Source: an uncultured Planctomycetota bacterium
GTDB lineage: Bacteria > Planctomycetota > Planctomycetia > Gemmatales > Gemmataceae
NCBI GenBank assembly: GCA_963784995.1
Contig: CAWATZ010000006.1
Coordinates: 264,853-328,852, forward strand
DNA: 64,000 bases
Direction of reading: 5' to 3'
Shown here: one piece after another, positions 1,495-33,849 of the stretch
Layout: each line of letters opens with the position of its first letter
Numbering within the stretch: the stretch's first letter is position 1
The notes under the pieces: model-generated
Database searches by the model: none
Told to the model about the DNA's origin: nothing
The model's input: only the letters and a program-made list of their open reading frames with translations
Position numbers and translations under genes: made by a program

Positions 1495-1571
1495 CCGGCC
1501 TGTCCCTTCCCCCTTGTGGGGGTTACGATGATCCCTGGGAACCCCGTCTCATCCAGGCCAGGAGAGCCTCC

Positions 1572-3987
1572 ATGCGCAGCGGATCGTGGTTGGTGTTCGC
1601 CCTCCTTCTTTCTCCTGGAGCTTCCGCGGCCCCGGTTGTCGCGGATCTCGACTCCGTCAGCCAGGACGAGCAGACGCTCCGCTCGGCCGGCCTGAGTGTC
1701 GATGGCCCGTCCCTGGTGGAGTTGTTCCGGCAACGGGCCCAGCTGGAAGCCGACCCGGAAGGGCTCAACACCTGGATCAGGCGTCTGAACGACGCGGACC
1801 CTGAAGTGCGTACTCGTGCCGCAAACCGGCTGCTGGGCCGAGGCACGGTCGCCTTGCCCCTGCTGCGTCGCGCGGCCAACGACCTGGGCGAGCCGGAACT
1901 GGCCGGCCGGGCCCAGCACTGCATCGACTTGATCGAAAGGCAATCTCCGCCGACCGTGACGCCGGTCGCCGCCGTTCGCCTGCTTTTGCATCGCAAACCG
2001 GCCGGTGCGGTGGAAGCGCTGCTGGCCTATCTGCCGGCGGCCGAGACTCCCGCCCTGGTGGAGGAAGTGGCCAGTGCCCTGACAGCACTGGCTTATGCTG
2101 ACGACAAACCGCACCCTGCCTTGCTGGCAGCGCTGACCGACAACCTGCCGCTGCGTCGCGCCGTGGCCGCAAGCGCCCTGGCCGGCAAGGAGCATCCCCA
2201 GGCCCGGCAGGCCGTCCACAAGCTGCTGCGTGATCCCAGGCCGCTGGTCCGACTCCGCGTTCGCCCTGGCCCTGACCGAGGCCAACGATCTGGACGGCGT
2301 GCCCGTGCTGATTGATCTGCTGGCTGAGGTGGCCCCCCAACAGCACAAGCCCATCGAGGACCTGCTGAGCCGGCTGGCTGGCGGCTGGACGCCCACCACG
2401 CCCCTGTGTGATGAGGAGGCGGCCCGCCGCATTCGCCGCAGTGCCTGGGCTGGCTGGTGGCAGAACAGCGACGGCCCCGCTCTGCTGGCCCAGGTGCGAC
2501 GCCACGTGCTCAGCGGCAAGGACCAGGCGAAGGCGCTGGCCCTGATCGAGAAGCTGGGGGATGACTCCTTCGAGGTGCGCCAGACCGCCTCCGCGGCGTT
2601 GACCGAGTTCGGCGCCCTGGCCGTGCCGCTGCTGCGTCAGGCCAGCCGCAGCACCGATGCGGAACGGGCCCGGCGGGCCGAGACGTGTTTGCAGGAGATT
2701 GCCGACAAGGGCGGCAAACCGTTGCCGGAACCGGTCTTCCGGCTGCTGAGCCTGCGCAAGCCGGCCGGTGCCGCGGAGGCGTTGCTGGACTATCTGCCTC
2801 ATGCCGAGATCGAACAGCGCAGCGTCGAGGTGCGGCAGGCGCTGGCGGCCCTGGCGGTGCGCGAGGGTCGGCTTGAGCCAGCCCTGGTGCGGGCGCTGGC
2901 AGATCCATTGCCCTTGCGGCGACTGGCCGCTGCCGAGGCCATCCTGGCAGCAGGTGCCCTGGAGCAACGGGACGCCGTGCGCAAGCTGCTGCGGGACGCT
3001 GATCCGCTGGTGCGGCTGCGAACCGCCGTGGCCCTGGCCGTCAAGCGTGATCGGGAAGCAATCCCGGTGCTGATCGAGTCGCTGGCCGAGGAACCTTCCG
3101 ACGCCAGCGCCGAAGCGGAGGGACTGCTGTACCGTCTGGCTGGCCAAGGCGGGCCGAAACTCGAGCAGGCTGAGGGCGCGGCTGGTCGTCGCCAGCGCCG
3201 TGACGCCTGGGCTGCCTGGTGGAAGGAGGCCGGTTCGTTGGTCGATCTGGCCGTTCTGGAGAACCACACGCGCCTGCTGGGGTTCACGCTCCTGGCAATG
3301 GGGGTAAAGGATGGTCAGGTGCTGGAACTGGGCCGGGATGGCAAGCCACGCTGGATCATTACCGGGCTGGCAGCTCCGGTAGACGCCCACGTCCTGCCCG
3401 GAGACCGCGTTCTGATTGCGGAGTACGAGGGGAGCCGTGTGACCGAACGCGATTTCAAGGGCAACATCCTCTGGCAAAAGGATGGGTTGGCAGCCAGTCC
3501 GGTCAACGTGCAGCGTCTGGCCAACGGCAATACCTTTATCGCCACGGAGAACGAGTTGCTTGAGGTCGATCGCGCCGGCAAGACCGTCTGGAGTCAGGCT
3601 TTTCCGAACCTCGATGCGGCGTGCAAATCTCGGGATGGCAGCATCACCTGCCTGGCGTACGACCAATGCATTCGCCTCAGTTCCGCCGGGAAGGAACTGA
3701 AGCGTTTTCCATTCGGCGGCAGGCCGACGTACAAGAGCGCAATCGACGTGTCGGCCGACGGCCGGATCTTGATTGCACTGCACAACCAGGTATCGGAAGT
3801 GGACGGCGAAGGCAAGGTCCTCTGGCAGGCCTCGGCACTGGGAATCGCCACGGCCACGCACTTGCCCAACGGCCACGTGCTCGTTGCCGGCGGCTTCCGG
3901 GAGGTAATCATGGAACTGGATCGGGCGGGCAAGGTCGTCTGGGAACACAAGGCGGGGATGCGGGTCTGGCGGGCCCGGCGGCGCTGA
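1572..3987 (+). CDS. HEAT-repeat + PQQ-like beta-propeller protein, paralog copy 2; +1 frameshift near 2260 (extra C in LVRLRV|ALAL region) relative to copies 3 and 4
   Basis: ATG at 1572 preceded by AGGAG. N-terminal signal peptide MRSGSWLVFALLL. Two ORF-track pieces (1164..2315 and 2230..3987) join collinearly against copy 3. Confidence 0.7.
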
Positions 3988-4064
3988 CCGGCCTGTCCGT
4001 TCCCCCTTGTGGGGGTTACGATAATCCCTGGAAACGCCGTCTCATCCAGTCCAGGAGAGCCTCC

Positions 4065-6536
4065 ATGCGCAGCGGATCGTGGCTGGTGTTCACCCTCATT
4101 CTTGTCTGCGTGACCTCCCTGGCGCTCGGCCGCCAGCCTGGCAATTCTCCCCGAGGCCCAACTGCTGGGGGAGCTTCGGCATCCGCCCCAGCTGCCAGGA
4201 AGCCTCCCACGGTCAGCGAGGACGAAGAGGAACTCCGGTTGGTAGGCCTGCAAGTCGATGGTCCGTCCCTGGTGGAGTTCTTTCGGCAACGGGCCGCGGT
4301 CCCCGCCGACCCCAAAGGGCTCCAGCCCTGGATCAGGCGTCTGAACGATGTGGACCCCGAAGTGCGGACTCGTGCCGCACACCGGCTGCTGGGCCGAGGC
4401 ACGGTCGCCTTGCCCCTGCTGCGTCGCGTCGCCAATGACCTGGGCGACCCTGAACTCGCTGACCGAGCCCAGCACTGCATCGACTTGATCGAAAGGCGCT
4501 CTCCGACGAACGTGACGCCGGTCGCCGCCGTTCGCTTGCTTCTGCATCGCAAACCGGCCGGGGCCGTGGAAGCGCTGCTGGCCTATCTACCGACGGCTGA
4601 GTCTCCCGCCCTGGTGGAGGAAGTGAGCCGTGCCTTGACGGCAATGGCTTATGCCAACGAAAAGCCGCACGCCGCCTTGCTGGCCGCGCTCACCGACAAT
4701 ATGCCGCTGCGTCGCGCCGTGGCCGCAAGCGCCCTGGCCGGAAAGGACCATCCCGAAGCACGGCCAGCCGTCCGCAAGCTGCTGCGCGATTCCAAACCGT
4801 TGGTCCGTCTCCGCGTCGCTCTGGCGTTAGCCTCGGCCAACGACCTCGACGGTGTCCCCGTTCTGATTGAGCTGCTGGCCGAGGTCGTGCCACCGCGGGA
4901 CAAGCCCATCGAGGAACTGCTGGGCCGGCTGGCGGGCGACTGGGCACCGACCACGCCTCAGGGTGACGATGCGGTCGCACGCCGCATTCGCCGCGCCGCC
5001 TGGGCCAGCTGGTGGCGGAACAGCGATAGCCCCGCCCTGCTGGCCCAGATGCGTCGCCATACGCTCAGCAGCAGCGACCAGGCCAAGGTGCTGGCGCTGA
5101 TCGACAAACTGGGCGATGACTCCTTCGAGGTGCGGCAGACCGCCTCGGGAGCGTTGACCGAGTTCGGAACCCTGGCGATACCGCTGCTGCGCCAGGCCAC
5201 GCGCAGCACCGATGCGGAACGGGCGCGGCGGGCCGAGACGTGTTTGCAGGACATTGCCGACAGGGGCGGCAAACCCTTGCCGGAGCCAGTCTTGCGGCTG
5301 CTGAGCCTGCGTCAGCCAGCAGGGGCCGTGGAAGCCTTGCTGGACTATCTGCCCCATGCCGAAATCGAACACCACCGCGTCGAGGTCCGCAAGGCGCTGG
5401 CAGCCCTGGCGGTGCGTGCCGGCCGACTGGAGCCAGCCCTGGTGCGGGCGCTGGCAGATCCATTGCCGGGCCGCCGACTGGCCGCTGCCGAGGCCATCCT
5501 GGCAGCGGGCACCCTGGAGCAACGCGCTGCCGTGCGCAAGCTGCTGCGTGACACTGATCCGTCGGTGCGACTGCGGATCGCCGCGGCCTTGGCCGGCAAG
5601 CGCGAGCGCGAAGCGATCCCGGTGCTGATCGAGTTGGTGGCTGAAGAGTCCTCCGACGCCAGCGGCGAAGCGGAGGAAATCCTGTATCGCCTGGCCGGCG
5701 AAGGTGGACCAAAGGTCGAGCCAGACAGGAGTACGGCTGGCCGGCGCCAGCGCCGCGACGCCTGGGCCGCCTGGTGGAAGCAGGTCGCTCCCTCGGTCAA
5801 TCTGGGCGTTCTGGAGAACCACGTGCCCTTGCTCGGGTATACCCTGCTGGTGAATAACAAACAGGTGCTGGAACTGGACCAGGACGGCAAGCCGCGCTGG
5901 ATCATTAACAACCTTCCTACCCCGCTGGATGCCCACGTCCTTCCCGGCGACCGCGTGCTGATCGCGGAGTTCTACAGCAAGCGTGTGACCGAGCGCGATT
6001 TCCAGGGTGCCATCCTGTGGCAAAAAGAAGGGCTGGAAGACCATCCGGTCAACGTTCAGCGTCTGGCCAACGGCAATACCTTTATCGCAACTGTTAATGG
6101 ATTGCTCGAAGTCGATCGTGCCGGCAAGACCGTCTGGAGCAAGCCGTTTCCAAACCTCACCGCGGCGTGCAAATCTCGGGATGGCAGCATCACCTGCCTG
6201 GACGGCGACGGCCAGTGCATTCGCCTCAGTTCTGTCGGCAAGGAACTGAAGCGGTTTCCTTCCGGCGGCAGGCCGACGTACAAGAGCGCAATCGACGTGT
6301 CGGCCGATGGCCGGATCTTGATTGCGCTGCACAACCAGGTATCGGAATTGGACGCCGAGGGCAAAGTCCTCTGGCAAGCCCCGGCACCGGGAATCACCAC
6401 GGCCACGCACTTGCCCAACGGCCACGTGCTCGTTGCCGGCGGCTTCCGGGGGGTAATCATGGAGCTGGATCGGTCGAGCAAGGTTGTCTGGGAATCCAAG
6501 CCCGGGCAGGGGGGCATCCGAGCGCGGCGGCGCTGA
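4065..6536 (+). CDS. HEAT-repeat + PQQ-like beta-propeller protein, paralog copy 3 (intact, 823 aa, signal peptide)
   Basis: ATG 4065 after caggagagcctcc. Uninterrupted frame. HEAT (PBS-lyase-like) repeats followed by a PQQ-like propeller. Confidence 0.85.
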   Translation: MRSGSWLVFTLILVCVTSLALGRQPGNSPRGPTAGGASASAPAARKPPTVSEDEEELRLVGLQVDGPSLVEFFRQRAAVPADPKGLQPWIRRLNDVDPEVRTRAAHRLLGRGTVALPLLRRVANDLGDPELADRAQHCIDLIERRSPTNVTPVAAVRLLLHRKPAGAVEALLAYLPTAESPALVEEVSRALTAMAYANEKPHAALLAALTDNMPLRRAVAASALAGKDHPEARPAVRKLLRDSKPLVRLRVALALASANDLDGVPVLIELLAEVVPPRDKPIEELLGRLAGDWAPTTPQGDDAVARRIRRAAWASWWRNSDSPALLAQMRRHTLSSSDQAKVLALIDKLGDDSFEVRQTASGALTEFGTLAIPLLRQATRSTDAERARRAETCLQDIADRGGKPLPEPVLRLLSLRQPAGAVEALLDYLPHAEIEHHRVEVRKALAALAVRAGRLEPALVRALADPLPGRRLAAAEAILAAGTLEQRAAVRKLLRDTDPSVRLRIAAALAGKREREAIPVLIELVAEESSDASGEAEEILYRLAGEGGPKVEPDRSTAGRRQRRDAWAAWWKQVAPSVNLGVLENHVPLLGYTLLVNNKQVLELDQDGKPRWIINNLPTPLDAHVLPGDRVLIAEFYSKRVTERDFQGAILWQKEGLEDHPVNVQRLANGNTFIATVNGLLEVDRAGKTVWSKPFPNLTAACKSRDGSITCLDGDGQCIRLSSVGKELKRFPSGGRPTYKSAIDVSADGRILIALHNQVSELDAEGKVLWQAPAPGITTATHLPNGHVLVAGGFRGVIMELDRSSKVVWESKPGQGGIRARRR

Positions 6537-6612
6537 CCGACTTGTCCATTCCGCCGGGCAGGGTTACGATCATCCTTTAGGACCACTCACATCCAGGCCA
6601 GGAGTGCCTCCC

Positions 6613-9087
6613 ATGCGCAGCGTATCGTGGCTGGTGTTCGCCCTCGTTCTTTTCTGTGTGGCTTCCGCAGGGCAGGGCCATTCTCCCAGAGCCTCAGCTG
6701 ACCCGGTGGGGTCTTCGTCAGCCGACCCGGTTGCCGGGGACCTCAGCTCCGTCCGCGAGGACGAAGAGAAACTCCGCTCGGCGGGCCTGCCTGTCGATGG
6801 TCCGGCCCTGGTGGAGTTGTTCCGACAACGGGCCGCGGTGGCGACCGATCCGGAAGGGCTCCAGCCCTGGATCAGGCGTCTGAACGACGCGGACCCGGAA
6901 GTCCGCGTTCGTGCGGCCCGCCGGCTGGTGGGCAAAGGCACGACGGCCGTGCCTTTGCTGCGTCGGGCGGCCAACGATCTGGGCGAGCCCGACCTGGCCA
7001 GCCGGGCCCGGCACTGCCTCGCATTGATCGAAAGGCAATCTCCGCCGACCGTGACGCCGGCCGCGGCCGTTCGCCTGCTGGCCCATCGCAAACCCGCCGG
7101 GGCGGTGGAAGCCCTGCTCGCCTACCTGCCGGCTGCGGAGACTCCCGCCCTGGTGGAGGAAGTGGCCAGTGCCCTGACCGCCCTGGCTTATCCGGGCGAC
7201 AAACCGCACGCTGCCTTGCTCGCGGCCCTCACCGACAACCTGCCGCTGCGTCGTGCCGTGGCCGGCTGCGCCCTGGCCGGCAAGGACCACCCCGAAGCAC
7301 GGCTGGCCGTCCGCAAGCTGCTGCGTGATCCCAAAGCGCCGGTCCGTCTCCGCGTTGCCCTGTCCCTGACCGAAGCCAACGATCTGGAAGGGGTGCCCGT
7401 CCTGATCGATCTGCTTGCCGAGGTGGTGCCCCCGCGGGACAGGCCCATCGAGGAGCTGCTCCAGCGGCTGGCGGGCGCCTGGACGCCGGCCACGCTGCCG
7501 AGTGACGATGCGGTCGCACGCCGCATTCGCCGCGACAGCTGGGCCAGTTGGTGGCAGAACAGCGATGGTCCCGCCCTGCTGGGCCAGCTGCGCCGGCACG
7601 TACTCAGCGGCAAGGACCAGGCCCGGGTGCAGGCCCTGATTGTCAAGTTGGGCGACGACACTTTTGAGGTGCGCCAGACGGCCTCCGGGGCGTTGACCGA
7701 GTTCGGAGCATTGGCCGTGCCGCTGCTGCGGGAGGCCACGCGCAGCACCGATGCGGAACGGGCGCGGCGGGCCGAAACGTGTCTGCAGGAGATTGCCGAC
7801 AAGGGCGGCAAACCGTTGCCGGAACCTGTCTTGCGGCTGCTGAGCCTGCGCAAGCCGGCCGGTGCCGTGGAGGCCTTGCTGGATTATTTGCCCCATGCCG
7901 AGGTCGAGGAGCGCAGCGACGAGGTGCGGAAGACGCTGGCCGCCCTGGCCATGCGTGAGGGCCGGTCAGAGCCGGCCCTGGTGCGGGCGCTGGAAGATCC
8001 CCAGCCGTTGCGGCGGCTGGCCGCTGCCGAGGCCATCGCGGCCGAAGGCGCCCTGGAGCAACGCGCCGCCGTGCGCAAGCTGCTGCGTGACAGTGATCCG
8101 CGCGTCCGGCTGCGCACGGCCCTGGCCCTGGCGATGAAGCGCGACCCCGAAGCGATCCCGGTCCTGATCGAGTCGGTGGCCGAGAAGCCAGCCGACGACA
8201 ACGCCGCGGCGGAGGAAATGCTGTACCGGCTGGCCGGCGACCACGTTCCGAAGCTCGAACCGGCTTCGGACGCTGCCGGCCGCCGCCAGCGCCGCGACGC
8301 CTGGGCGGCCTGGTGGAAAGAGGCCGCGGGCTCGGTCGATCTGGCCGTCCTGGAGGACCAGCCAGCCCAGCTGGGGTACACCCTGGTGGTGCTGGGGCGC
8401 GACAACGTCGTGCTGGAGCTGGGGCGCGACAACAAGCCGCGCTGGACCATCAGGGGGCTGGCGGAACCGGTGGATGCCGTCGTTCTGCCGGGCAACCGCG
8501 TGCTGATTGCCGAGCACTCCGGCGATCGGGTCACCGAACGCGATTTCCAGGGGAACGTCCTGTGGCAAAAAGATGGGCTAGGTGGTGGTCCGTTCAACGC
8601 CCAGCGGTTGGCCAACGGCAACACCTTCATCGCCGCGGAGAACGGCTTGTTCGAGGTCGATCGCAGTGGCCAGACGGTCTGGCGCCGGCCGTTTCCGAAC
8701 CTCAAGGCCGCGTACAGATCTCGGGATGGGAGCATCGCCTGCCTGGACGCCGCCGGGCAGTGCGTGCTGCTCTCCGCGGCCGGCAAGGAACTGAAACGGT
8801 TTGCCACGGGATTTGTGCCGTCGTCTCCCGGCGGCATCGAGGTGACCGCCAACGGCCGGATCCTGATCGCCCAGCAGAGCAGGAACAGGGTGATCGAAGT
8901 GGACACGGACGGGAAAATCCTCTGGCAAGCGGCGGCGCCGGGAATCTCCCGGGCCACGCGCCTGCCCAGCGGGCACACCCTGGTCGCCAGCCTGGACGGG
9001 GAACGCCTGACCGAACTGGACCCGGCAGGCAAGGTCATCTGGGAGTACAAGCCCGGCAAGGCAGTCTCGAGAGCACGGCGGCGCTGA
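6613..9087 (+). CDS. HEAT-repeat + PQQ-like beta-propeller protein, paralog copy 4 (intact, 824 aa, signal peptide)
   Basis: ATG 6613 (MRSVSWLVFALVLF) after aggagtgcctcc. Collinear with copy 3. Confidence 0.85.
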   Translation: MRSVSWLVFALVLFCVASAGQGHSPRASADPVGSSSADPVAGDLSSVREDEEKLRSAGLPVDGPALVELFRQRAAVATDPEGLQPWIRRLNDADPEVRVRAARRLVGKGTTAVPLLRRAANDLGEPDLASRARHCLALIERQSPPTVTPAAAVRLLAHRKPAGAVEALLAYLPAAETPALVEEVASALTALAYPGDKPHAALLAALTDNLPLRRAVAGCALAGKDHPEARLAVRKLLRDPKAPVRLRVALSLTEANDLEGVPVLIDLLAEVVPPRDRPIEELLQRLAGAWTPATLPSDDAVARRIRRDSWASWWQNSDGPALLGQLRRHVLSGKDQARVQALIVKLGDDTFEVRQTASGALTEFGALAVPLLREATRSTDAERARRAETCLQEIADKGGKPLPEPVLRLLSLRKPAGAVEALLDYLPHAEVEERSDEVRKTLAALAMREGRSEPALVRALEDPQPLRRLAAAEAIAAEGALEQRAAVRKLLRDSDPRVRLRTALALAMKRDPEAIPVLIESVAEKPADDNAAAEEMLYRLAGDHVPKLEPASDAAGRRQRRDAWAAWWKEAAGSVDLAVLEDQPAQLGYTLVVLGRDNVVLELGRDNKPRWTIRGLAEPVDAVVLPGNRVLIAEHSGDRVTERDFQGNVLWQKDGLGGGPFNAQRLANGNTFIAAENGLFEVDRSGQTVWRRPFPNLKAAYRSRDGSIACLDAAGQCVLLSAAGKELKRFATGFVPSSPGGIEVTANGRILIAQQSRNRVIEVDTDGKILWQAAAPGISRATRLPSGHTLVASLDGERLTELDPAGKVIWEYKPGKAVSRARRR

Positions 9088-9088
9088 A

Positions 9089-9176
9089 GTCCCCGGGTTG
9101 CGCTGCGCTCCACCCGGGGCTTTAGTCCCGAAAGCAGGAGTAAAGCCCCGGGTGGAGCGCAGCGCAACCCGGGGAC
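9089..9176. repeat. Perfect 36-bp-arm inverted repeat (16-nt loop) immediately after the stop of HEAT/PQQ copy 4; putative terminator / member of the CGCTGCGCTC palindrome family
   Basis: gtccccgggttgcgctgcgctccacccggggcttta (9089-9124) is the exact reverse complement of 9141-9176. Confidence 0.7.
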
Positions 9177-9686
9177 TCGAAGACCCTCACCGGATCACCT
9201 TGGGCTCAACCCAGCACGGGAACCCCTGCCACTCGATTTCCGCTACCCCTGCGAACCGCCTTGTCTCCGCGAGCATCGCCGCAGCGGCGAACACCTCGCG
9301 CAGGCGTTCTAAAGAGGAGGCATCCGACGCGGTAAGGATTGCTGGAGGCCCCTCCCTCGATTCGCTTCTCGTCATGGCATGCTCGTCTTGCTGTGACCGA
9401 ACACCCCCGTTCAGCCGCCGGGGCCGCCGGGAGGGGACTGAACGTCTCGGGAAGCCCCGGTTGGCTGCAACGTCTCGTTCAGCGGCGCCAGGCTTTCATT
9501 TGGGGAATTGTATCGCCAGGATCGCCGGCCCGGCAAGCACAGGCGCCGGCTCACTCTGGCAAATGCTGTTCGCAGACGATGATCTATACTTGAGTGCTCT
9601 GGCTGCGACGACCGGCCGCGAGTGAAATCGCGCCCTGGCGGAGGGCGCGGCCCAGTTCACGCGCGGGTTCGAGCTGTGGAGGCGCA

Positions 9687-10799
9687 ATGAACATCCTGCT
9701 TGTCATCCTCGTTTCCTGGTTTGCTGTCGGCGCCGGGCTCGCCAAATTCGGCTTGTGGTGTATGAAAACGCATGAAAAGGAGATGATTGAAAAGGATCCT
9801 CTATGCCAGATATTGGGCTGTATTCCGCCCCCGATCAAATGGAGCGTTGTTGCAGTGCTGGTGCTGTTCGGCCCCCTGGTGTTGCTGTGGGCTGTTTACG
9901 ATGCGATCCAGGAAAGCCGCAAGGAAAAGGATGAAACCGACGCTCCAGGTGCAACCCCGGTTGCTGCACCGGCGCCTGAGATTGACCCGCGTGTCGGGTG
10001 CATGGTGCTGTACGGCCTGTTTGGCGCCGCCTTGATCGCCTGGGTCTGGGCAAACGAGCATCCTGGGAAGTCCTTTAGCACGTTCCTGGAGAAACAAGCC
10101 CGCACGATGGGATTCTGGCTCGTCGCCTTCGTCTTGCCCGGCCTCGTGGTAAACTGGAGGAAGCCTTTGCGGAGCCTGCAATTTCCGGCGTTGCTCTTGC
10201 CACTCTACCTGGTGGGAGTGGTGGTCCCTGAGGTCGTGGCGATGACGGTGGGGTGGGAGGGTGGCTGGGCCCTCGGCATCGCCGGCGCGCTCGCAGGGGG
10301 ATTGGCGGGGGCGGCGACGGGCAGGCTCAACCCGTGGATAATGGGGGAGTCCGAAAGAGAGTATCCGAGTACACGTCAGAGGGCGGTCTTGCTGCCGATC
10401 ATGGTCGCCGTGTTGTTCGCCGTCTACGGCGCCCACAACTGGGCAAGCACGTGGCTGACGCCGGACTACGTCTGGACCCTGGGGATGTTCCCGCTCCTCT
10501 TCGCCTTCCTGGGCGGCCTGGTAGGCAGGCCTGTGCTGGGTATGCTCACGGCGTTGCCCCTGGCGCTCGTGCAACTGGTCCCGCTCGTCGCCTTGCTGAC
10601 GGTGGGCTGGGACGGCGGCTGGATCCTCGGCGTCGCCGGCGCGGCCGCGGGGGCCGTGGCGGGGGCGGTGAACGGCTTCTTGTATGACCGATGGATCATG
10701 CCGGAGTACGACAAGCGTCGTACGGGCAAGAGCGCGATCCCGCCGCCGGGCTCGACCGAGGGGCCGGGATCGAGCGGGTCGCTAGCCGAGCGCTCCTGA
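9687..10799 (+). CDS. Hypothetical polytopic membrane protein with internal duplication and glycine-zipper motifs (TVGWEGGWALGIAGALAGG / TVGWDGGWILGVAGAAAGA)
   Basis: ATG 9687 (MNILLVILVSWF). Multiple hydrophobic segments. Two repeated GxxxG-rich modules. Confidence 0.55.
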   Translation: MNILLVILVSWFAVGAGLAKFGLWCMKTHEKEMIEKDPLCQILGCIPPPIKWSVVAVLVLFGPLVLLWAVYDAIQESRKEKDETDAPGATPVAAPAPEIDPRVGCMVLYGLFGAALIAWVWANEHPGKSFSTFLEKQARTMGFWLVAFVLPGLVVNWRKPLRSLQFPALLLPLYLVGVVVPEVVAMTVGWEGGWALGIAGALAGGLAGAATGRLNPWIMGESEREYPSTRQRAVLLPIMVAVLFAVYGAHNWASTWLTPDYVWTLGMFPLLFAFLGGLVGRPVLGMLTALPLALVQLVPLVALLTVGWDGGWILGVAGAAAGAVAGAVNGFLYDRWIMPEYDKRRTGKSAIPPPGSTEGPGSSGSLAERS

Positions 10800-11186
10800 A
10801 GGCAGATGACGCTCCGGCGTCGCAGCAATTGGCAACTTCGCCTCCATCGACTGCGACGCGGCAGGTGAGTCAACTGCTCGTCGGGCGCCGACGAACGGCT
10901 ACCAGCCGGTGTCTAACCTGAACGAGATCAGCGCCCCCGGCTTCAATAGCGCCTGGCCTTTCTCGGTGAACTCGACGAGGAGCCCATCAGGTTGCCGCTC
11001 GACCCGGAACAGTGTCCTGTCCACCGGCCCCCGCGCCAGGGGATCTTCAACCAGCGCGTAGTAAGTGCCGTCCAGGCCCAGCCTATCGTCGCGTAAACCG
11101 TCCCGGACGCCAACACAGAGAGACAGCGGATCGCCCGTGCAGCCGTAGTCCGACGGGATGCCGGTCAGTCGGAACTTGACCGGTAT

Positions 11187-11602
11187 TTAACGCCGATTTC
11201 CACGGAGCGGTAATTCCTCACACGCCAACGAGAAAGCGACAAAGTAGGTCATGATTATCCGTGTACAATTCCTGGGGAAACCCCTTCTTCCGGACAGACC
11301 AGTGGTGAGATGGAGCATCCCGTGTGAGTCTTTTCACGGGAGAAACAGGGAACTTCCGGGACCCAAAATCTAGCGATCCGTTTAGTGGCTTTCTGATTCG
11401 CCTGCGCCGACGCACTGGGAATACAGCCGATTGCGGTCGTGCTACTCCAATAGCGACAATGGGGAGAGTATAAATTAACATTGCCAACTCGGCCTCCGGA
11501 TTACCGGAAATACTTCACAAGGCAATCCGTATTCCCCGAAAAACCCTGACCTCCCCCCGAAAAAGTGTGAGGAATTACCGCCCCGTGGAAATCGGCGTTC
11601 AA
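11187..11602. mobile_element. 416-bp element bounded by ~37-bp near-perfect terminal inverted repeats (TTAACGCCGATTTCCACGGAGCGGTAATTCCTCACAC ... GTGTGAGGAATTACCGCCCCGTGGAAATCGGCGTTCAA); MITE-like, lower-GC interior, no convincing ORF
   Basis: Left arm 11187-11223, right arm 11565-11602, 1-2 mismatches. Interior ORF 11218..11487 looks spurious. Confidence 0.4.
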
Positions 11603-11665
11603 GAGAAGCGGGTTGTGCCCCGCCTGCAGACGGGGCTGCCATACTCTGCTCCGGTCACAACCTGA

Positions 11666-13231
11666 TCACCACCTTGCACCCCGGCAGCGCCTCGCGCAGG
11701 CGCTGGCCCCTTCCTCGGTGATCGCCGTACCGAAGGCGTAGACAGACCGCAGTTTCTTGAGGCCGCGCAAGTGGACGAGGGCGCCGTCGCCCCGGTTCCC
11801 CACGTAGCTGAGCGTCAGGGAGCAAAGGTTCTCCAGATCCGCCAGCGCCGCCAGGCCGTCGTCTGTAACCCCGTGCAGGTTCTCCAACCGGAGTTGCTCC
11901 AGGCCGGCCAGGGCGGCGACGTGGCGGATGCCCGCGTCGGTGACGTGGTCACAGCCGTTGAGCTTCAGCTCGCGCAGCCCCTGGAGCCCGCGCAGCAAGC
12001 CCAGAGAGTCATCGGTCAGGTGGCGGCAGAACACCAGGTCGAGGGCGCGCAGGGAAGGCAGCTCTGCCAGGACAGCGAACCCGGAGGCAGAGATCCGTTC
12101 GTTGTGGCCCATCTCGAGGCGCTCCAGGACCGGGGCGGTGGTCAGGCGGGCCAGGGCAGCGTCGGAAAGGCCGCTGCACTCCGAGCAGTCGAGTTCGCGC
12201 AGGGAAGGCAGGCGTGCGATCGTCTCGAAGCCTTCAGCGCCGGGCCTGGTGCGGCGCACGTCCAGCTTGCGCAAGCTCTCCAGGCCCGCCAGGTGGGCGA
12301 CCCCAGAGTCGGATAGGCCGGTGCAGTAGGCGAGGTCCAGCACCTCGAGACGCGACATGCCGGCCACGCAGGCGAACCCTGCCGCGGTCAGGTTGGCGCA
12401 GAAGCAGAGATGGAGCTTCCGCAAATTGACCAGGGCGCGGAGGCGAGCGGCGCCGGTGTCTCCGAGGGACTTGCTGGCGCGAAGGTCGAGGTGTTGCAAG
12501 CCAGTCAGGTCGCCAACGTGAGCGAGGGCGGCGTCGGTCCGCGGGGTCTTCAGCCCCAGGGACAAGGAGCGGAGGCGGGAAAGGTCAGCCAGCGGCTCCA
12601 GACCGGCCGGGTCGAGGGCCGGGTCGTCCAGGCTCAGGTCCAGAGAGTGGAATCGGGGCAAGCGGCGCAGGTGGCGGAGCCCGGGACCGCGGACGGGCTT
12701 GAGCGAACCCAGGCTCAACTCTTGCAAGCGCTCGAGTTCACCCAGAAAGGCGAGGCCGTCGTCGCTGAGGTGGGACGAGCCCCACAACGACAGCGTCCGC
12801 ACCGCCCCGACCCGGTCTGCCGTCAAATCTCCGTTGCGGGCGGACTGGACGCTCAGGCCCTCGACCCACCCGGAGCCGAGGGCCGCTCCCGCTGCCACCG
12901 GGAAGGATTTGCCGGCCAGGGAGCGCCCCAGCAAGTTGGCGGAAAGGAGGCCGTCGCGAACGTACCAGGATCCCGAGGGCCGACCCAGCCAGGGCCCCCG
13001 GAGCGACTCGAGGATCGCGTCGGCACGGACCCGGTCGGGGCTGCGGGCATCCCAGGGAAGCCGGTCGCTGGTGGCCGAGAGGCGCACCATTTCCCCGCGT
13101 GGGTCGCCGCGTCGGTCGAGCCAGTCGGCCAGCCCCAGACGGGGTGCAAGCTCTTCGGGCGCGTCGTGGCAGGTGGCCAGCAGGGCCATTTCTTCTGCGG
13201 TGGGGACAAAGTGGGCACTGCGGCGAGCCAT
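11666..13231 (-). CDS. Leucine-rich-repeat (CC-type LRR) protein with N-terminal repeat-companion domain (TIGR02996-like, ...LADWLDRRGDPRGEMVRL...)
   Basis: Many LxxLxLxxC LRR units. N-terminus matches the ADWLEE-GDP-RAEFIRL type motif that I recall as TIGR02996 of Gemmata repeat proteins. Confidence 0.75.
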   Translation of the reverse strand: MARRSAHFVPTAEEMALLATCHDAPEELAPRLGLADWLDRRGDPRGEMVRLSATSDRLPWDARSPDRVRADAILESLRGPWLGRPSGSWYVRDGLLSANLLGRSLAGKSFPVAAGAALGSGWVEGLSVQSARNGDLTADRVGAVRTLSLWGSSHLSDDGLAFLGELERLQELSLGSLKPVRGPGLRHLRRLPRFHSLDLSLDDPALDPAGLEPLADLSRLRSLSLGLKTPRTDAALAHVGDLTGLQHLDLRASKSLGDTGAARLRALVNLRKLHLCFCANLTAAGFACVAGMSRLEVLDLAYCTGLSDSGVAHLAGLESLRKLDVRRTRPGAEGFETIARLPSLRELDCSECSGLSDAALARLTTAPVLERLEMGHNERISASGFAVLAELPSLRALDLVFCRHLTDDSLGLLRGLQGLRELKLNGCDHVTDAGIRHVAALAGLEQLRLENLHGVTDDGLAALADLENLCSLTLSYVGNRGDGALVHLRGLKKLRSVYAFGTAITEEGASACARRCRGARW

Positions 13232-13514: not shown

Positions 13515-13610
13515 CCCGAACGCCGAAATTCAGCAGCGGCGGCCGCTCCTGAGACCTGGAATTACAGGAGCCATGTTGCGGCCGCCGTCTGCTGAAATGG
13601 TTGGTTCGGC
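13515..13610 (-). other. attC-like recombination site (96 bp) of the cassette carrying the aspartic-protease gene pair
   Basis: Read on the minus strand: GCCGAAC (R'') overlapping the stop codon, imperfect inverted repeat CAGCAGACGGCGGCCGC / GCGGCCGCCGCTGCTGAA, terminal GTTCGGG (R'). Confidence 0.55.
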
Positions 13611-14898: not shown

Positions 14899-14997
14899 TG
14901 CGAACGAAAAGGATAAGCTGCCGGGGCCGCCTGCAAGACCTCCATGCCGCGCGAAACCAGGATGGCGGCCCCGGTCAGCTTCATCCGGTGGTTCGGC
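14899..14997 (-). other. attC-like recombination site (99 bp) downstream of the lipoprotein cassette gene
   Basis: Minus strand: GCCGAAC ... inverted repeat GCTGACCGGGGCCGCC / GGCGGCCCCGGCAGC ... GTTCGCA. Same architecture as 13515-13610 and 15684-15782. Confidence 0.45.
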
Positions 14998-15040
14998 GGC
15001 CTGCCACCCTGTGTTGGCCCAAGCCGGAATTGCCCCCTGG

Positions 15041-15658
15041 CTACTTCAACCCGTCCGTGAGACCTGGCTCCTTTTCTTGCAGATGTTTCAGCAGCACTTC
15101 CGCATAGCGCTCGACGTCCGCTGTCTCCTCAAGCTTCGGCACCTCAGCGGGCAGGGCGATCTTCTTCTGCTGATAGGTAGGCGAAGCGGCTGTCAGGTCC
15201 AGCACGAAGACTCGGCCGGCGGCAGGATCAACCTCCTTACCGCCCACGGTAAGCACCTCTTTCGTGACCGCCGTGCGTTCCTTATTTAGCTCGTAATGGG
15301 CCGCCGCTTCAATGCGCTTGCCGTTGATCGTGCAGACGCTTTTGACTTCCACATCGCCCTGGCTGCGCGCGTAGCCGTCCAGGCCGAGCGAGCTTTCGTT
15401 GGATGTGGGCGGCAGCTTGAAAAGAATGATGTAGGTCAGTTGCTGGGAGGTCTTGGGCTTCGTCACCGTGCCAAACGTCACCCCAGGCTTGCCGGGGAGG
15501 ACCACGAGATGGCCGCCCGAAACCGCGAAATCGTTCGTAGCGGAGAGGAAACCGGCCGTGGTAATTTTTGGCTGAGGAGCGACACGATTGCCACAGCCGA
15601 CGGCGCCCGTCAGGGCGATAAGCAGCCCAAAACCATGCCAAGCACAACGTGTGTTCAT
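15041..15658 (-). CDS. Hypothetical lipoprotein (signal peptide + lipobox LTGAVGC), cassette-encoded
   Basis: MNTRCAWHGFGLLIALTGAVGCGN... Minus strand between two attC-like sites. Confidence 0.65.
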   Translation of the reverse strand: MNTRCAWHGFGLLIALTGAVGCGNRVAPQPKITTAGFLSATNDFAVSGGHLVVLPGKPGVTFGTVTKPKTSQQLTYIILFKLPPTSNESSLGLDGYARSQGDVEVKSVCTINGKRIEAAAHYELNKERTAVTKEVLTVGGKEVDPAAGRVFVLDLTAASPTYQQKKIALPAEVPKLEETADVERYAEVLLKHLQEKEPGLTDGLK

Positions 15659-15683
15659 CCGGAATTGTCTCCCAGTGCTGCGA

Positions 15684-15782
15684 GTCGAACGCCCCGCTCA
15701 GCAGCCGGCTCACGCGGGCCAGACAGCGAAGCTCGACAAGACTCACTCGCGTGGCCGGTCTGCTGCAGCTTTTGGTTCGGCG
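15684..15782 (-). other. attC-like recombination site (99 bp) 8 nt downstream of the stop of ORF 15791..16348
   Basis: + strand: GTCGAACGCC-ccg-CTCAGCAGCCGGCTCACGCG ... CGCGTGGCCGGTCTGCTGCAGC-TTTTGGTTCGGC. Nearly identical ends to site 13515-13610 (GAACGCC...CAGCAGC / TCTGCTG...TTGGTTCGGC). Confidence 0.55.
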
Positions 15783-15790
15783 TTCCTTTG

Positions 15791-16348
<558 letters not shown>

Positions 16349-17048
16349 CCACGCTACTCCAAGAGGGCAGACCAGACGAGAGGTCTTTGTGTCTCAGGGA
16401 CGCACCAAGGTAGCCGCATTACGCGGCCCTCGACATCTGCATTTCCCTGTGAGGTCTGTTGGCTCTTGTTTGGAGATAACGGCGGGCAGTCCATTCGCCA
16501 TCCGCTCCGTTACGTCGTTGTTGTCACCCTGGCGGACCTTCACCCTGTCTGACCCATTACAGCTCAGCGTTCGGCTACTACGCCGCCTCCGCCATCCTGC
16601 CCGCTCGCTGGCATTGTCGCGTCTGTTGGCCCGGTTGGACTCCAGGTACAGATGCAGCGGTTTAGGATTTCCCACCTTCCGTAAGCACAGACTGTAGAAC
16701 CCTTAGCTGCCTGCTCCACGCCGGGTGGCTGGGTGACAACACGTTTGGCGTTCGGAAACCAAACGTCCCTCCACCATACCTTTTGGTCCAGGTGATGCAG
16801 CCGTTGCACCTGTTATCACTTACGACGCTCACTCGCAGGTTTCTCGCGTCAGCATCGGTTCAGGGTTCGACACGCAGCCACTTTCGGCTGGCAGCCGGTG
16901 TTCTTTGTCAGCAGGCTTCCCACCTTACCCTTTGCCAAAGGGGAACGCAGGCTGCTCAACCCTTACACCGTTGTCATGGTATAGCTCCTTCAGAGCAATC
17001 TGTACATACGTTAAGTGGCGCACCCGAACTTGTGATTAGGCTGACCGG

Positions 17049-17272: not shown

Positions 17273-17276
17273 CTCG

Positions 17277-17291
17277 TGTTCATATTGAACA
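17277..17291. promoter_or_regulatory. Perfect 15-bp palindrome TGTTCAtatTGAACA between the -10 element and the intI RBS; candidate operator (LexA-type?)
   Basis: Perfect 6-3-6 palindrome overlapping the predicted transcription start. I recall integron integrases being commonly SOS-regulated. Confidence 0.35.
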
Positions 17292-17323
17292 AAGAGTCAC
17301 ATTCCCTGTTCAGGAGGAAAGCC

Positions 17324-18142
17324 ATGTCTGATGATCGCGGTCCGTCCCCAGAGTCGTCCGCCCAGCCATCGCCGCCGCGCTTGCTCGACCAGTTGTGTCA
17401 AGTCGCACGGAAGCGTGGCCATGCCGAATGGACTGTGGCCGACTACGTCAAGTGGGTCCGCCGCCTGGTCCGCTTCCACGGCCAGCGCCATCCCCGGGAG
17501 CTGGGTCTTGCGGAAGTGTCCCAGTTCCTGGAGTCGGTTGCCCAGACGGAGAAAAACCCAGTCCGGGCCATCGCCGCCAGCCGGGAGGCCCTCGATTTCC
17601 TGTATCGCGAGGTGCTGTGCCTGGACCTGGGAGAGCTGCCCTGGCCGAGGCCGCCCCGGCTGCTCGACCAGGTCCGCCAGGTGCTGCGCGTCCGCCACTA
17701 TGCCCGCCGTACCGAGGACTGTTACCTCGGCTGGATCCTCCGCTTCATCTTCTTTCACAAGAAACGTCACCCCCGCGACATGGGCGCTGCCGAGGTGGAG
17801 CAGTTCCTCACCGACCTGGCGGTCCGCGGCCACGTCTCGGCCAGCACGCAAAACCAGGCGCTGAACGCCCTGGTGTTCCTGTATCAGCAAGTATTGGAGA
17901 TCGACCTGGGCCGGCTGGACGCGGTGCGGGCGCGGCGGCCGAAACGGCTGCCCGTGGTGCTGGCTCCCGAGGAAGTCGCGGCGGTGCTGCAACGCATCGA
18001 GGGAGGGGACGGCGTCTTCCAGTTGATGGCCCGGCTGCTCTACGGCTGCGGTCTGCGGCTGCTGGAATGCTGTCAGCTGCGTGTCAAGGACGTCCAGCTG
18101 GCCCGTGGGCAGATCGTCGTGCGCGGCGGCAAGGGGAACAAG
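17324..18142 (+). pseudogene. intI: Integron integrase intI remnant: IntI1-like N-terminal half with a tandemly duplicated, diverged N-terminal domain, truncated after GKGNK (no catalytic R-H-R-Y domain)
   Basis: ...HYARRTEDCYLGWILRFIFFHKKRHPRDMGAAEVEQFLTDLA...VSASTQNQALNALVFLYQQVL...RRLPVVLAPEEVAAVLQRIEGGDGVFQLMARLLYGCGLRLLECCQLRVKDVQLARGQIVVRGGKGNK aligns closely with IntI1 residues ~20-175. No frame downstream encodes a tyrosine-recombinase catalytic domain. Confidence 0.8.
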
Positions 18143-18228
18143 GAAGTAGCTGCCGTTGGGCAGGGTGCAACAGGAACAAGACCCAGGGATGGTAGCCGGG
18201 CACCGTCTGCCTGCCCGACAGCTCCTGG

Positions 18229-18305
18229 TCGTTGCAGCGTTGCAGTCCTTGCACGCATTGCACTGCAATGCAGGGCGGCTGGGCTGGCTGCAACGCTGCA
18301 ACGAC
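18229..18305. repeat. Inverted repeat (17-bp perfect arms TCGTTGCAGCGTTGCAG / CTGCAACGCTGCAACGA with an internally palindromic 43-nt loop) just downstream of the intI truncation point
   Basis: Left arm 18229-18245, right arm 18289-18305. Lies between convergent intI remnant and pentapeptide gene. Confidence 0.5.
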
Positions 18306-18517
18306 GCCTGGTTGCCCCTCGGAACCAGCGCAGCAAGCACCTCGAAGTGTCAAGTGGTCGCCCGCCCCAATCGTCCCGGAGGAGACCAAGCCGGAGGGGA
18401 GCCAGCGTGCCATCTCGCTGTGTGTGTGCCGCAGCGCCATGCAATCCATCCGCGCTCTGGCTTCCCTCCTTGCTTGTGCCGTCCGGGGTGTGGAACACGG
18501 CGCACCCCGGACGGCCC

Positions 18518-19825
18518 TTACCGAATCACCTTCCGGCTGAAGGCGACGATGAACAGGCCCCAGAGCAGGGTGCCCAGCAGCGATTCCACGATCAGCGGCA
18601 CGTTCATCCAGTCCTTGGCCATGTCGCTGACGCTGCTCAATCCCGACGTGAACACCGCCACGCTCTTGAACAGCCCGATCAGGATGCGGTTGTTCAGCTG
18701 CGTCTTCTCCGGGCCAAAGGGCAGCTTGTCCGGCTCGATCGTGAAGCAATCGATGCCCACGGCATAAATCGCGGCGAACACGACAATGATCAGCACGGCC
18801 GCCCGCACCGCCCGGAAGGGGTTGGTGCAGTAGCCGCAGCCGTGGTCCAGCAGCAACCAGTCGGCGAACTGGCCCAGCTTGGTCCAGGGACGCAGCCAGG
18901 AACGCCGGCTGCCGCGGCGCTGGTTGACCTTGAAGCGATAGAACGCCCAGTCCTCCTGCTCGTAGCGGTGCAGGTTCTCGAAGACCCGCTTTAAGAATGC
19001 GTACTCGTGCATCGCCGTCTCGTAGTCGCCCTTCTCCTCGCTGGCCAGCCGGCCCTGGATTTGCTCCGGATTGATGCGCAGCCGATCGCCGATGACGTTG
19101 CTGAAGGCGAACTGCTGCTTCGGCCCCTGCTGGATCGACTCCAGGTAGGTGTAGTCGTTCAGCTTGGCCTTGCTCAGATCGAGCAAGCCCTCGAAGCGCG
19201 AGGTGGTGAAGTCCAGCTTCTTGGCCACCGCCGAGCCGCGCATCAGGAAGTGGCCGTTGAAGACGCACCCCTGCAGTACGAAGCCCTCCTCGGCGTGGAA
19301 ACTGCGGAAGTCCACGTCGATCAGGAACCGGCAATCCTTGAAGTCCACCCAGCCCTCGAAGCGCGTCTCCCACAGCCGGACCGTTCCCTCAAAGGTCGAG
19401 GCGCCAACGACGAACTTGCCCTTGCAGGTCGCGTTCTCCAGGTTGAAGCCCTCCTTGACCTTGAAGCGATAAAACTGCGCCCGGATCAGCGTCGAGCCGG
19501 ACAGGATGAGCCCCTTGCGGAACTCATTGTCCTTGTTGGACTCCGGCCGCTCGATCGTGCAGGCGGTCATCTTGACTTCGTCCTGGAAGATGACGCCGTC
19601 AAACCGAGGCCGAACCAGGATACAGTGCCGCAGGCGAACTGGGGCGGTGAACTCGCCCCGGAAGACCAGCCGCTCCACGCGAACGTTCTCCAGCGTCTCG
19701 CCCTTGCGGAGGCGTTCCAGCGCCTCCTTGGCCGACATTTCGGTCCGCGCAGCGCCCTCCGGGGCTTCCGGCTGCAGAGTCGTTGTTCCCTCGAAATCGT
19801 CGCTGTCCGATTCGGGCAAGCTCAT
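18518..19825 (-). CDS. Pentapeptide-repeat protein fused to a C-terminal two-TM ion-channel-like domain
   Basis: Tandem A(D/N)LxX-type pentapeptide repeats. C-terminal hydrophobic helices with a pore-like segment. Confidence 0.65.
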   Translation of the reverse strand: MSLPESDSDDFEGTTTLQPEAPEGAARTEMSAKEALERLRKGETLENVRVERLVFRGEFTAPVRLRHCILVRPRFDGVIFQDEVKMTACTIERPESNKDNEFRKGLILSGSTLIRAQFYRFKVKEGFNLENATCKGKFVVGASTFEGTVRLWETRFEGWVDFKDCRFLIDVDFRSFHAEEGFVLQGCVFNGHFLMRGSAVAKKLDFTTSRFEGLLDLSKAKLNDYTYLESIQQGPKQQFAFSNVIGDRLRINPEQIQGRLASEEKGDYETAMHEYAFLKRVFENLHRYEQEDWAFYRFKVNQRRGSRRSWLRPWTKLGQFADWLLLDHGCGYCTNPFRAVRAAVLIIVVFAAIYAVGIDCFTIEPDKLPFGPEKTQLNNRILIGLFKSVAVFTSGLSSVSDMAKDWMNVPLIVESLLGTLLWGLFIVAFSRKVIR

Positions 19826-20939: not shown

Positions 20940-21012
20940 AAGTAGGGTGGGCCGAGCGCAGCGAGGCCCACCGCTTGGCGTGGTGGGCCTCGCTGCGCTC
21001 GGCCCACCCTAC
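20940..21012. repeat. Perfect 32-bp-arm inverted repeat (7-nt loop) overlapping the MFS stop codon; CGCTGCGCTC palindrome family
   Basis: AGTAGGGTGGGCCGAGCGCAGCGAGGCCCACC gcttggc GTGGGCCTCGCTGCGCTCGGCCCACCCTACT. Confidence 0.65.
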
Positions 21013-22419
21013 TCCCCCTGCTCCGCGGGAAAGCGCACGGCCAGCGCCAGCAGCAGCCCCCCAATGACCAGGCTGCCCGCCCCCTGGATCACCAGCACCA
21101 CGGGCGCGCCCCACAGGTCGGCCCAGCGGCCGGCGACCAGCGAGCCCAGCTGCTGGGCGCCGCTGAGCACCATCGACCAGATGCCCATGATCACGCCGCG
21201 GTTGTGGTGCCGGGCCGACAACTGCATCAGCGACTGCCCGGTGGCGAACACCAGCACCAGGCCGCTTCCGACCAGGACGCAGCAGCTCTGGGCCTGGCTC
21301 AGCGTTCGCGACTGGCTCAGTCCCAGTTCGCCCAGCCCCGCCAGGGCCACGCCCACGACCAGAAAGCGCCAGCTCCGCGAGCGGCTCCCCGACGAGGCCA
21401 CCACCAGGGCCGACAGCAAGGCGCCGACGCCAACGGCGCTGAGCAAGAAGCCGTAGTCCGCGGCCCCTCCATCCATCGTCTTGCCGCCGCCGAGGTCCTC
21501 GTGGCTCAGGGCCGGCAGCAGTGTCAGCACCGGCCAGCCAAACAGGGCCAGGAACCCGACCAGGGTCAGCAGCAGGCTGCAAGCCGGGCCGGGAACCCAG
21601 GTAGTGAAAGCCCTCCCGCAGAGGGGCGGCGATCCGCCAGGCGAGGCTACGCGGGCCCTCCAGTCGCTTCGTATAATCCGGAACGGTAATTGATACCGCA
21701 TCAGGCCCAGGCTGGTCCTGCGGTGGCCCCGACAAGGGAGCGTTCAGCGGGGGTAACTCGGGCACCTGCCCGGGTCGGGAAAACCGGGTCCGGTCCATCA
21801 AAGCCAGGGCGATCAGGACGGCGACGTAGCTGACGGCGTTGCTGAGAAAGCACAGGCCCGCTCCCATGGTGGGCAGGGCCAGCGCTCCCAGCGCGGGACC
21901 GAGGGCCCGGGCGGAGTTGAACAGCAGCGAGTTGAGGCCCACGGCGTTGATCAGGTCCTCCGGGCCGACCATGTCATGGACGAACGCCAGCCGGGCCGGC
22001 AGGTCCAGGGCGGTCACCAGGCCGTTGCCCAGCGCCACCAGCAGCAAGTGCCAGGGTTTAACCCAGCCTCCCAGCGTCAGGACGGCCAGGATCAGGGCGA
22101 GGATCAGGAGGATGGCCTGGGAGATGAAGATCACCCACTGCCGCGGCCAGCGGTCGGCCAGGCTGCCGCCCCAGATGCCGAGCAGGAAGGTCGGCAGCAC
22201 CTGGGCCGCCAGCACAGCCCCCGCCCAGAAGGACTTTCCCGTCAGCCGGTAGGCCAGCCAGGTCATGGCCGTGGCCTGCATCCACGTCCCCAAGAGCGAG
22301 ATCAGCTGGCCCAGGAAGTAGAGCCGATAGTTGGAATGCCGCAGGGCGCGAAAGGGACGCCACCACCGGGAGGCCGGCGGACCGGGAGGGGATTCAGGGG
22401 AAGCCGGTGTGTCGGACAC
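21009..22419 (-). CDS. MFS transporter (12-TM, EntS-like); frameshift near 21640
   Basis: N-terminal half is in the 20419..22419 frame, C-terminal half in the 21009..21701 frame. Both halves are MFS-like. Confidence 0.6.
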
Positions 22420-24062: not shown

Positions 24063-24080
24063 GGGGCCTCCCGCATCATG

Positions 24081-24176
24081 CTCCCCTCTCCCCTTGTGGG
24101 AGAGGGGTTGGGGGTGAGGGGCTTTTTCCGATTTATCGTTTCGCGCTCGCTAACCCAGCGCGAAACGATAAATCAA
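24081..24176. repeat. REP-like composite palindromic element copy 1: CCCCTCTCCCC-N4-GGGAGAGGGG hairpin, TTGGGGGTGAGGGG, and GATTTATCGTTTCGCGCT-loop-AGCGCGAAACGATAAATC hairpin
   Basis: Same composite element recurs at 44741-44890 and 60010-60106. Confidence 0.7.
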
Positions 24177-25349: not shown

Positions 25350-25506
25350 GGAAATTCGAGCCTCCTGAAACGAGGGATTCTGGCAATCCTGGACCCAAAG
25401 CTGACGTAACCCTTCCTTTTTACCGATTTCGGCCAGAGAAACAAGACAGACCGGCAAAATTCAGTTGACGGGGCGCTGCCGGCCCGCCTAGACAAGCCCG
25501 GAGCAT

Positions 25507-25568: not shown

Positions 25569-25590
25569 ACAACGAACGAAGGAGACGCAC

Positions 25591-33770: not shown

Positions 33771-33849
33771 GCCGTTCGCGCCGTTACTTGCTGCTGGGCT
33801 TCCCTTTTGGCTTCGAGTCGCGCATGATGCTGTTAAGGGAGGTCGCATC

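Follow-up and report, generated by a model that had tools for sequence, protein, structure and literature searches.

A 407 bp inverted-repeat element beside an integron remnant in a Planctomycetota genome is very probably a miniature derivative of an IS4/IS1380-like insertion sequence family

Bacterial MITEs, such as those derived from IS630, IS5 and IS4 elements, are a few hundred base pairs long, encode no transposase and carry terminal inverted repeats (TIRs) that match those of an autonomous insertion sequence (IS). The element described here, which lies in a 64 kb stretch of DNA from an uncultured Planctomycetota bacterium (the window, meaning the whole stretch that was analysed), resembles them in each of these respects, and also in occupying an AT-richer intergenic target, in having a short target-site duplication (TSD) and in being expected to form a long hairpin if transcribed. 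Unlike typical bacterial MITEs, however, its TSD is imperfect, and unlike the catalogued MITEs it has a parent family of which no MITEs were found in the literature that we searched.

Among described ISs, the parent family comes closest to IS1380, the members of which have 4-5 bp target duplications in ISfinder. IS1380 is the best model match of the parent, and the resemblance extends to a TSD of 5 bp, a length of approximately 1.9 kb and a Tn5/piggyBat-like fold. The parent nevertheless differs from IS1380 in falling below the curated cut-off and in having an added IS481-like N-terminal HTH module, as well as in its 33 nt TIRs, its near-palindromic TTNAA target and, in one subfamily, an overlapping two-ORF layout. 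With piggyBac and piggyBat the family has in common an AT-rich palindromic target (TTNAA here, TTAA for piggyBac) and a structural similarity to piggyBat, but the present element is prokaryotic, its TSD is 5 bp rather than 4 bp long, the sequence identity is approximately 12% and structurally the match to Tn5 is better. The remaining comparison is with attC sites and the elements that target them, since the element adjoins an integron remnant and contains a 7-8 nt string common to two local attC-like sites. In contrast with the IS1111-attC group and the group IIC-attC introns, it occupies no attC, and the transposase of its family is a DDE enzyme; that of IS1111 is of the DEDD type.

The inverted repeat reported in the first-pass annotation is real, with an arm length, when the TSD is included, of 38 nt rather than the 37 nt given there. 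A repeat search placed the two 38 nt arms at 11186-11223 and 11565-11602, 95% complementary and with 341 nt between them, and a 35 nt pattern derived from the arms was found at only two sites in the 64 kb window and at none in 100 shuffles. The repeat had been placed rightly, but the outermost 5 nt on each side proved to be host TSD and not TIR, so that the element proper comprises 407 bp (11191-11597), with 33 nt TIRs that agree at 32 of 33 positions. The features of the element and of its immediate surroundings are the following.

10899-11186, minus strand: small cassette-type gene of 95 codons plus stop, starting with ATA (GC3 0.78; end-to-end homologues).
11186-11190, no strand: left TSD copy, TTTAA, according to the family-wide 5 bp TSD model; its centre base differs from that of the right copy.
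11191-11223, plus strand: left TIR, 33 nt, CGCCGATTTCCACGGAGCGGTAATTCCTCACAC, which fits the family TIR consensus from stacked element ends.
11224-11564, no strand: non-coding interior of the probable MITE, 341 nt, with small hairpins and no coding-type GC3, Rfam or transposase match.
11565-11597, plus strand: right TIR, 33 nt, GTGTGAGGAATTACCGCCCCGTGGAAATCGGCG, from the repeat search and the stacked-end consensus.
11598-11602, no strand: right TSD copy, TTCAA, according to the family-wide TSD model.
11603-11665, minus strand: spacer of 63 nt from the stop of the LRR gene to the insertion, with a weak hairpin, not attC-like (DNA fold z = -1.7) and with no terminator-like site.
11666-13231, minus strand: LRR-repeat protein gene (Pfam LRR_4, LRR_14 and LRR_8), upstream of the insertion in the minus sense.

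The interior has a GC content of 51.6% (52.8% for the element proper), compared with 65.5% for the whole window, and its ORFs are at most 89 aa long, with GC3 values of 0.44-0.55 as against 0.78-0.85 for the adjoining genes; the longest ORF of the element, of 89 aa, has a GC3 of 0.48. The description of a low-GC interior without a credible ORF therefore stands. A blastn search with the element against the window returned a single copy in 64 kb. Using tblastn with eight family transposases, we could find no match in the interior, and the window itself encodes no family transposase. Rfam, applied to the window at the gathering threshold, gave no family for the interior, and even at E values up to 10 on 11000-11800 there was a chance lncRNA match alone (E 4.6), i.e. 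no known ncRNA was found. Scanning of 10700-11900 for promoters and terminators gave none. In addition, the PLSDB plasmids yielded no match to the element by blastn or to the transposase by tblastn, and a full-text literature search with the terminal sequences found no paper.

Sequences with the same termini do occur elsewhere. A one-genome-per-species scan with the terminal 22 nt returned two contigs from an uncultured Planctomycetaceae MAG; in L002 the terminus is followed by approximately 270 nt and then by an HTH ORF (HTH_28/HTH_23) that runs into a transposase-like frame, and in L001 the same terminus stands at the start of the contig. A metagenome scan with 20 specified bases returned 30 contigs, approximately 25 of which show the match in the context of a terminus of approximately 33 nt, the common consensus of which, derived from the stacked element ends, is TGTnAGGTnATTTCGCyCCGTGGAAATCGGCG. 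The matches in L004, L005, L015, L019, L020 and L023 had no TIR context and were treated as chance or coding matches. Inverted pairs of ends, 1,908-1,937 bp apart, were present in L007, L022, L024, L026, L027 and L031, and also in L036/L037, which were reached via the transposase protein. These pairs, approximately 1.9 kb apart, show that full-length elements with TIRs of the window type exist. The terminal 22-33 nt of the window element thus bound 1.9 kb OrfA/OrfB elements in one MAG and in metagenomes, none of them from the window's own genome, and the TIRs of the autonomous members are 33 nt long, ending ...CCGTGGAAATCGGCG. In L026, a third, solitary family terminus (685-731) lies approximately 580 nt before the complete copy, where a truncated element or a nested insertion is possible.

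Reading outward from ...GGCG, the next bases at most family ends are TTNAA. As our search patterns contained the terminal TT, the apparent conservation of TT is inflated, and among ends that were not selected by pattern TT was no commoner than the outer AA. Where the dinucleotide at one end is unusual, it recurs at the far flank, as in L009 (TTGAT/TTGAT), L036 (TTCAG/TTCAG) and L013 (ATGAA/ATAAA), and this co-variation indicates a direct repeat of five target bases. Perfect pentamer pairs were found in four of ten cases, including L008 (TTAAA) and L026 (TTGAA) (permutation P=0.004), and flank positions agreed in 42 of 50 comparisons, as against a mean of 35.2 with shuffled partners (P=0.0008). 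The target duplication of the family is therefore 5 bp long and of the form (T/C)TNA(A/G), and the pentamer is the feature that the insertion sites have in common. Duplications of 3 bp (TNA), 4 bp or 1 bp, or none at all, were considered and rejected, as they predict nothing past the centre base and only the 5 bp model gives the co-variation in L009, L013 and L036. In the window itself, the flanks TTTAA and TTCAA match at four of five positions, with a different centre base; because both pentamers fit the preferred target, this match is weak when taken on its own. An old insertion, or recombination between copies, could account for the mismatch at the centre base. With the ends and the target of the family now given, IS and MITE annotation tools could pick it up.

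Gene calls in three independent contig sets gave an OrfA of 90-99 aa, with a weak HTH_28 match, which overlaps an OrfB of 427-441 aa, and in other members OrfA and OrfB are fused into a single ORF of approximately 580 aa. Within the two-ORF subfamily, the frames overlap by 22-52 nt in L036 (1229-2802) and L033 (1241-2814) and are adjacent, with a 14 nt gap, in L038 (296-1866); in L036, OrfB lies in the -1 frame relative to OrfA. This arrangement makes programmed frameshifting possible in the subfamily, but as the OrfA/OrfB overlap of L036 contains no obvious slippery heptamer we do not claim it. More than 4,440 proteins are close homologues of OrfB. Among the 120 of these that were listed, the proteins are unnamed or called 'hypothetical protein', have no precomputed Pfam domain and come mostly from contigs of approximately 2 kb, a size typical of a repeated element that assembles alone. 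With E values up to 1e-3 allowed, an exhaustive search gave 3,135 clusters at 50% identity, and a large number of them are single proteins of 575-590 aa that combine the HTH and DDE parts. An abundant transposase family that lies below the recognition thresholds of Pfam and NCBIfam is brought to light by these searches.

Alignment of 29 of these proteins, which are 22-39% identical to the first of them, shows a DDE triad of invariant residues (D299, D377 and E488) together with the IS4-type Y-x2-R-x3-E motif, in which Y481 and R484 are conserved to at least 90%. The NCBIfam IS1380 model matches 28 of the 29 diverse members, with a best E value of 2e-21, and the N-terminal part of the IS481 model matches 26 of them. 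Measured against the cut-off of 180 bits for NCBIfam NF033539 (IS1380), the ORF of L024 scored 22 bits and P0124 scored 35 bits, and no member reaches the curated cut-off; the best E value of 2e-21 likewise corresponds to far fewer than 180 bits. Pfam DDE_Tnp_1 and DDE_Tnp_1_4 also match the transposase, and a sequence profile search of solved structures returned weak HTH matches only. An AlphaFold (AF2) model of the transposase had a pLDDT of 87.6, and in a Foldseek comparison with the PDB its best match was the Tn5 transposase (E 1.5e-8), followed by piggyBat (E 2.4e-5). IS1380 transposases serve as the prokaryotic outgroup of piggyBac (PMC10813416). The motif, the model matches and the fold together indicate that the parent is a DDE IS of the IS4/IS1380 kind, which by the curated model lies outside IS1380.

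Members with family termini and no genes were also found, of 375 bp (L008), 401 bp (L009) and 407 bp (L013); they encode no transposase and align to one another along their length. Compared with L029, a degraded full-length copy in which OrfA and pieces of OrfB are left, they match approximately 200 nt of the left end at 69-79% and 37-67 nt of the right end, and judged from these alignments this is the classical relation of a MITE to its parent. An apparent other IS, on the opposite strand, is nested in the family copy of L029 (870-2000), and part of OrfB has been lost there. The window element is less close to the full-length elements: beyond or overlapping the TIR, its similarity is weak, extending over 73 alignment columns against the left ends of L029 (72.6%) and L007 (67%), and the stretch from approximately 11528 to 11564, beside the right TIR, is a continuation of that to L029. 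Given that the TIRs are common to all of these elements and little else is, the window element belongs to a different lineage, and its own parent is not among the elements found.

We consider it very probable that 11191-11597 is a non-autonomous miniature deletion derivative (MITE) of this family of approximately 1.9 kb ISs. The first-pass annotation had called the element 'MITE-like', and the description is borne out by the existence both of transposase-encoding elements with matching termini and of sister MITEs that are deletion derivatives. Counting against this reading are the presence of one copy in 64 kb, the imperfect TSD, the weak similarity beyond the TIRs and the fact that no empty site was found. 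Some of the same observations would suit a different history, which we regard as unlikely, namely that a full-length copy lost its transposase genes by internal deletion in place and never moved in its short form, leaving a one-off relic. The single copy in the window would agree with this, as would the lack of any close relative of the element (inner TIR GTGTGAGGAATTACC...) in the genome or metagenome scans, and both length and layout fit a deletion in a full-length copy between its 5' leader of approximately 270 nt and its short 3' end. However, elements of 375-407 bp recur independently in other metagenomes, from which it follows that this size class has been mobilized or repeatedly formed, and the interior shows no resemblance to the coding sequence of a transposase.

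If the element is a MITE of this family, a family transposase encoded elsewhere in the genome would have mobilized it in trans, or could still do so. Such a transposase would bind both 33 nt TIRs, cut at ...GGCG and insert the element with a 5 bp stagger at (T/C)TNA(A/G), and the cognate 1.9 kb parent would carry the TIR GTGTGAGGAATTACCGC.... The target in the window would have been a TTNAA pentamer, the last A of which would form the first base of the initiation codon of the small gene, and the site before insertion, with one pentamer, would read ...CCGCTTCTC-TTNAA-T(G/A)CCGGTC.... Insertion would place 407 bp of foreign DNA, together with an in-frame TAA, between the small gene and its former upstream sequence. 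Structurally, the one property predicted for the element is that its transcript, if there is one, would have a long terminal stem.

The minus-strand reading frame without a start that had been noted beside the element is also real, with sense codons at 10902-11186, a stop at 10899-10901 and a GC3 of 0.78. Among 5.8 billion proteins it has two homologues, both of which are 94 aa long and match it from end to end. The N-terminus of the homologue P0121 is MPVVFRLSG, compared with IPVKFRLTG in the window, and the first codon is ATG in P0121 and ATA in the window. At the DNA level, the start region reads ATGCCGGTC in L035 and ATACCGGTC in the window, and it is a G-to-A difference two bases outside the TSD that leaves the small gene without a start. 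The element is inserted immediately 5' of this gene, so that the start codon takes its first base from the last A of the duplicated pentamer, and the codon preceding the ATA is an in-frame TAA formed at the TSD/TIR junction. The frame had been taken for a possible gene fragment disrupted by the element, but it is complete by comparison with the 94 aa homologues and the element sits directly 5' to its first codon. For annotation purposes the small gene is thereby settled as complete but start-less, and not truncated. We also considered whether excision, removing 11189-11599 (411 nt), might fuse the small ORF to an ATG at 11642, and rejected it, as the homologues start where the window ORF starts; the idea fails because 407 nt plus the 5 nt TSD make 412 nt, which is not a multiple of three. 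The small gene is probably silent or decaying. We infer that the insertion separated it from the signals upstream and that loss of the start codon came later. On the other side, the element lies downstream of the stop of the LRR gene (11666-11668), as had been seen, at a distance of 63 nt rather than 60 nt.

The homologues of the small gene lie in cassette-like metagenome contexts (L034 2081-4600; L035). In L034, the homologue is part of an array of small ORFs beside a group II intron RT (RVT_N, RVT_1, GIIM and HNH), and an attC-like site of the same type as those in the window comes after it. In both L034 and L035, an R''-like CCGCCGAA(C/T) follows directly after the gene, and the same type of attC is thus present in other organisms.

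An attC family does lie near the element in the window, as had been claimed, in the form of an intI remnant and three attC-like sites. The ORF at 17276-18994 (plus strand) matches the integron integrase model TIGR02249 with an E value of 7e-75 and 252 bits, compared with a cut-off of 265, and also Phage_int_SAM_4 (E 1e-47). We call it an intI remnant because its main match to TIGR02249, in two stretches, covers only model positions 1-160 of 315, with the catalytic half apparently absent or duplicated away. The accompanying features are listed below.

13516-13609, minus strand: attC-like site, with a fold of an outer stem, an unpaired bubble, a long bulged inner stem and a variable loop.
14900-14999, minus strand: attC-like site, same fold.
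15685-15787, minus strand: attC-like site, same fold.
16264-16338, minus strand: group II intron domain V/VI, the 3' end of an intron (Rfam RF00029, 70 bits), with the intI remnant on one side and the cassettes on the other.

The attC-like sites sit between small low-GC ORFs, which include gag-asp_proteas-like and Imm1-like products, and together these form a short array of cassettes that diverges from the intI remnant. Among the ORFs scanned at 15041-16393 there was no reverse-transcriptase match in Pfam or NCBIfam.

The termini of the element had been thought to resemble the cores of these sites, from which it was suggested that the element might be derived from an attC or might target attC sites. 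It would then be an oversized attC for the LRR cassette, or an element with a specific preference for the attC sites of the neighbouring integron. We find this highly improbable. The setting itself speaks for it, with the intI fragment (TIGR02249, E 7e-75) and the three attC-like sites nearby and with a cassette-strand gene 63 nt before the element, and there is a shared string of 7-8 nt (GGCGTTC, AACGCCGA) in two of the three local sites: GGCGTTC stands at the junction of spacer and R' in both of these and AACGCCGA at the other end of one. In GGCGTTC, however, the TT(C) belongs to the host TSD, and the cores of the three local sites are GCCGAAC for R'' and GTTCG(G/A/C) for R', not AACGCC/GGCGTT. 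Nor does the element have the architecture of an attC, which is approximately 57-141 nt long, with paired R''/R' and L''/L' boxes on either side of an unpaired spacer and with extrahelical bases; it measures 407 bp, and its continuous 33 bp stem with one mismatch contrasts with the local arrangement of an R''/R' stem, a bubble and a bulged L''/L' stem. The insertion lies outside any attC, the closest recognizable one being 1.9 kb away. The 63 nt spacer as it was before insertion is not attC-like (fold z -1.7), and reconstructed empty sites from ten family members had no common structure, with z values from -2.6 to +2.1. Above all, DDE transposase genes lie between these same ends in numerous unrelated contigs, and this settles the origin of the element as a transposon.

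That the element is a structured non-coding RNA or a regulatory hairpin that merely looks like a transposon is scarcely credible, as the very stable predicted fold of its transcript (MFE -182.9 kcal/mol, z = -8.35) owes its stability to the TIR stem, it has no Rfam family and no promoter- or terminator-like site, and its interior is not conserved with the sister elements past the sub-terminal region. The inverted repeat is accordingly settled as a transposon relic and not an integron site or an RNA gene, with its boundaries and target duplication defined. A MITE is an ordinary kind of object, and this one tells us nothing new about how MITEs or integrons work.

Tentatively, the parent elements could represent an undescribed IS clade between IS1380, IS4 and piggyBac, of which the window element, L008, L009 and L013 would be the first recognized MITEs, although we hold this to be somewhat doubtful. 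The traits of the proposed clade may be its 33 nt TIRs, the near-palindromic TTNAA target with a 5 bp duplication, the IS481-like HTH and the two-ORF subfamily with OrfB in the -1 frame. Its members are very abundant in soil and sediment metagenomes (more than 3,000 clusters at 50% identity) and are labelled there only as 'hypothetical protein' or 'transposase'.

The window contains several other repeats. Near-perfect palindromes, with arms of 31-52 nt that are 84-100% complementary, are found at 9088-9177, 20941-21013, 46098-46208, 25506-25569 and 41279-41358; they are not attC-like, having no bubble and no bulges. The first three of these contain a motif of the GCGCAGCG type and may be a REP-like intergenic repeat family. 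A dispersed repeat at 44740-44892, with related copies at 24073-24151 and 60009-60104, has GGGGAGAGGGGTTGGGGGTGAGGGG in inverted pairs and is a second candidate small repeat family. A further inverted repeat at 36204-36408, with 91 nt arms that are 85% complementary and 23 nt apart, lies at the 3' end of the ORF at 33658-36174 and just downstream of the minus-strand ORF at 36421-37815. At the start of the window, 1-9087 consists of four tandem units of approximately 2.5 kb in long plus-strand ORFs, with 77-87% identity to the reference copy over 300 nt stretches, and is a recently amplified repeat-protein gene array. Finally, a segment of approximately 2 kb occurs twice (27000-29300 and 31500-33600), with the copies 4,438 nt apart and 74-91% identical, and represents tandemly duplicated genes.
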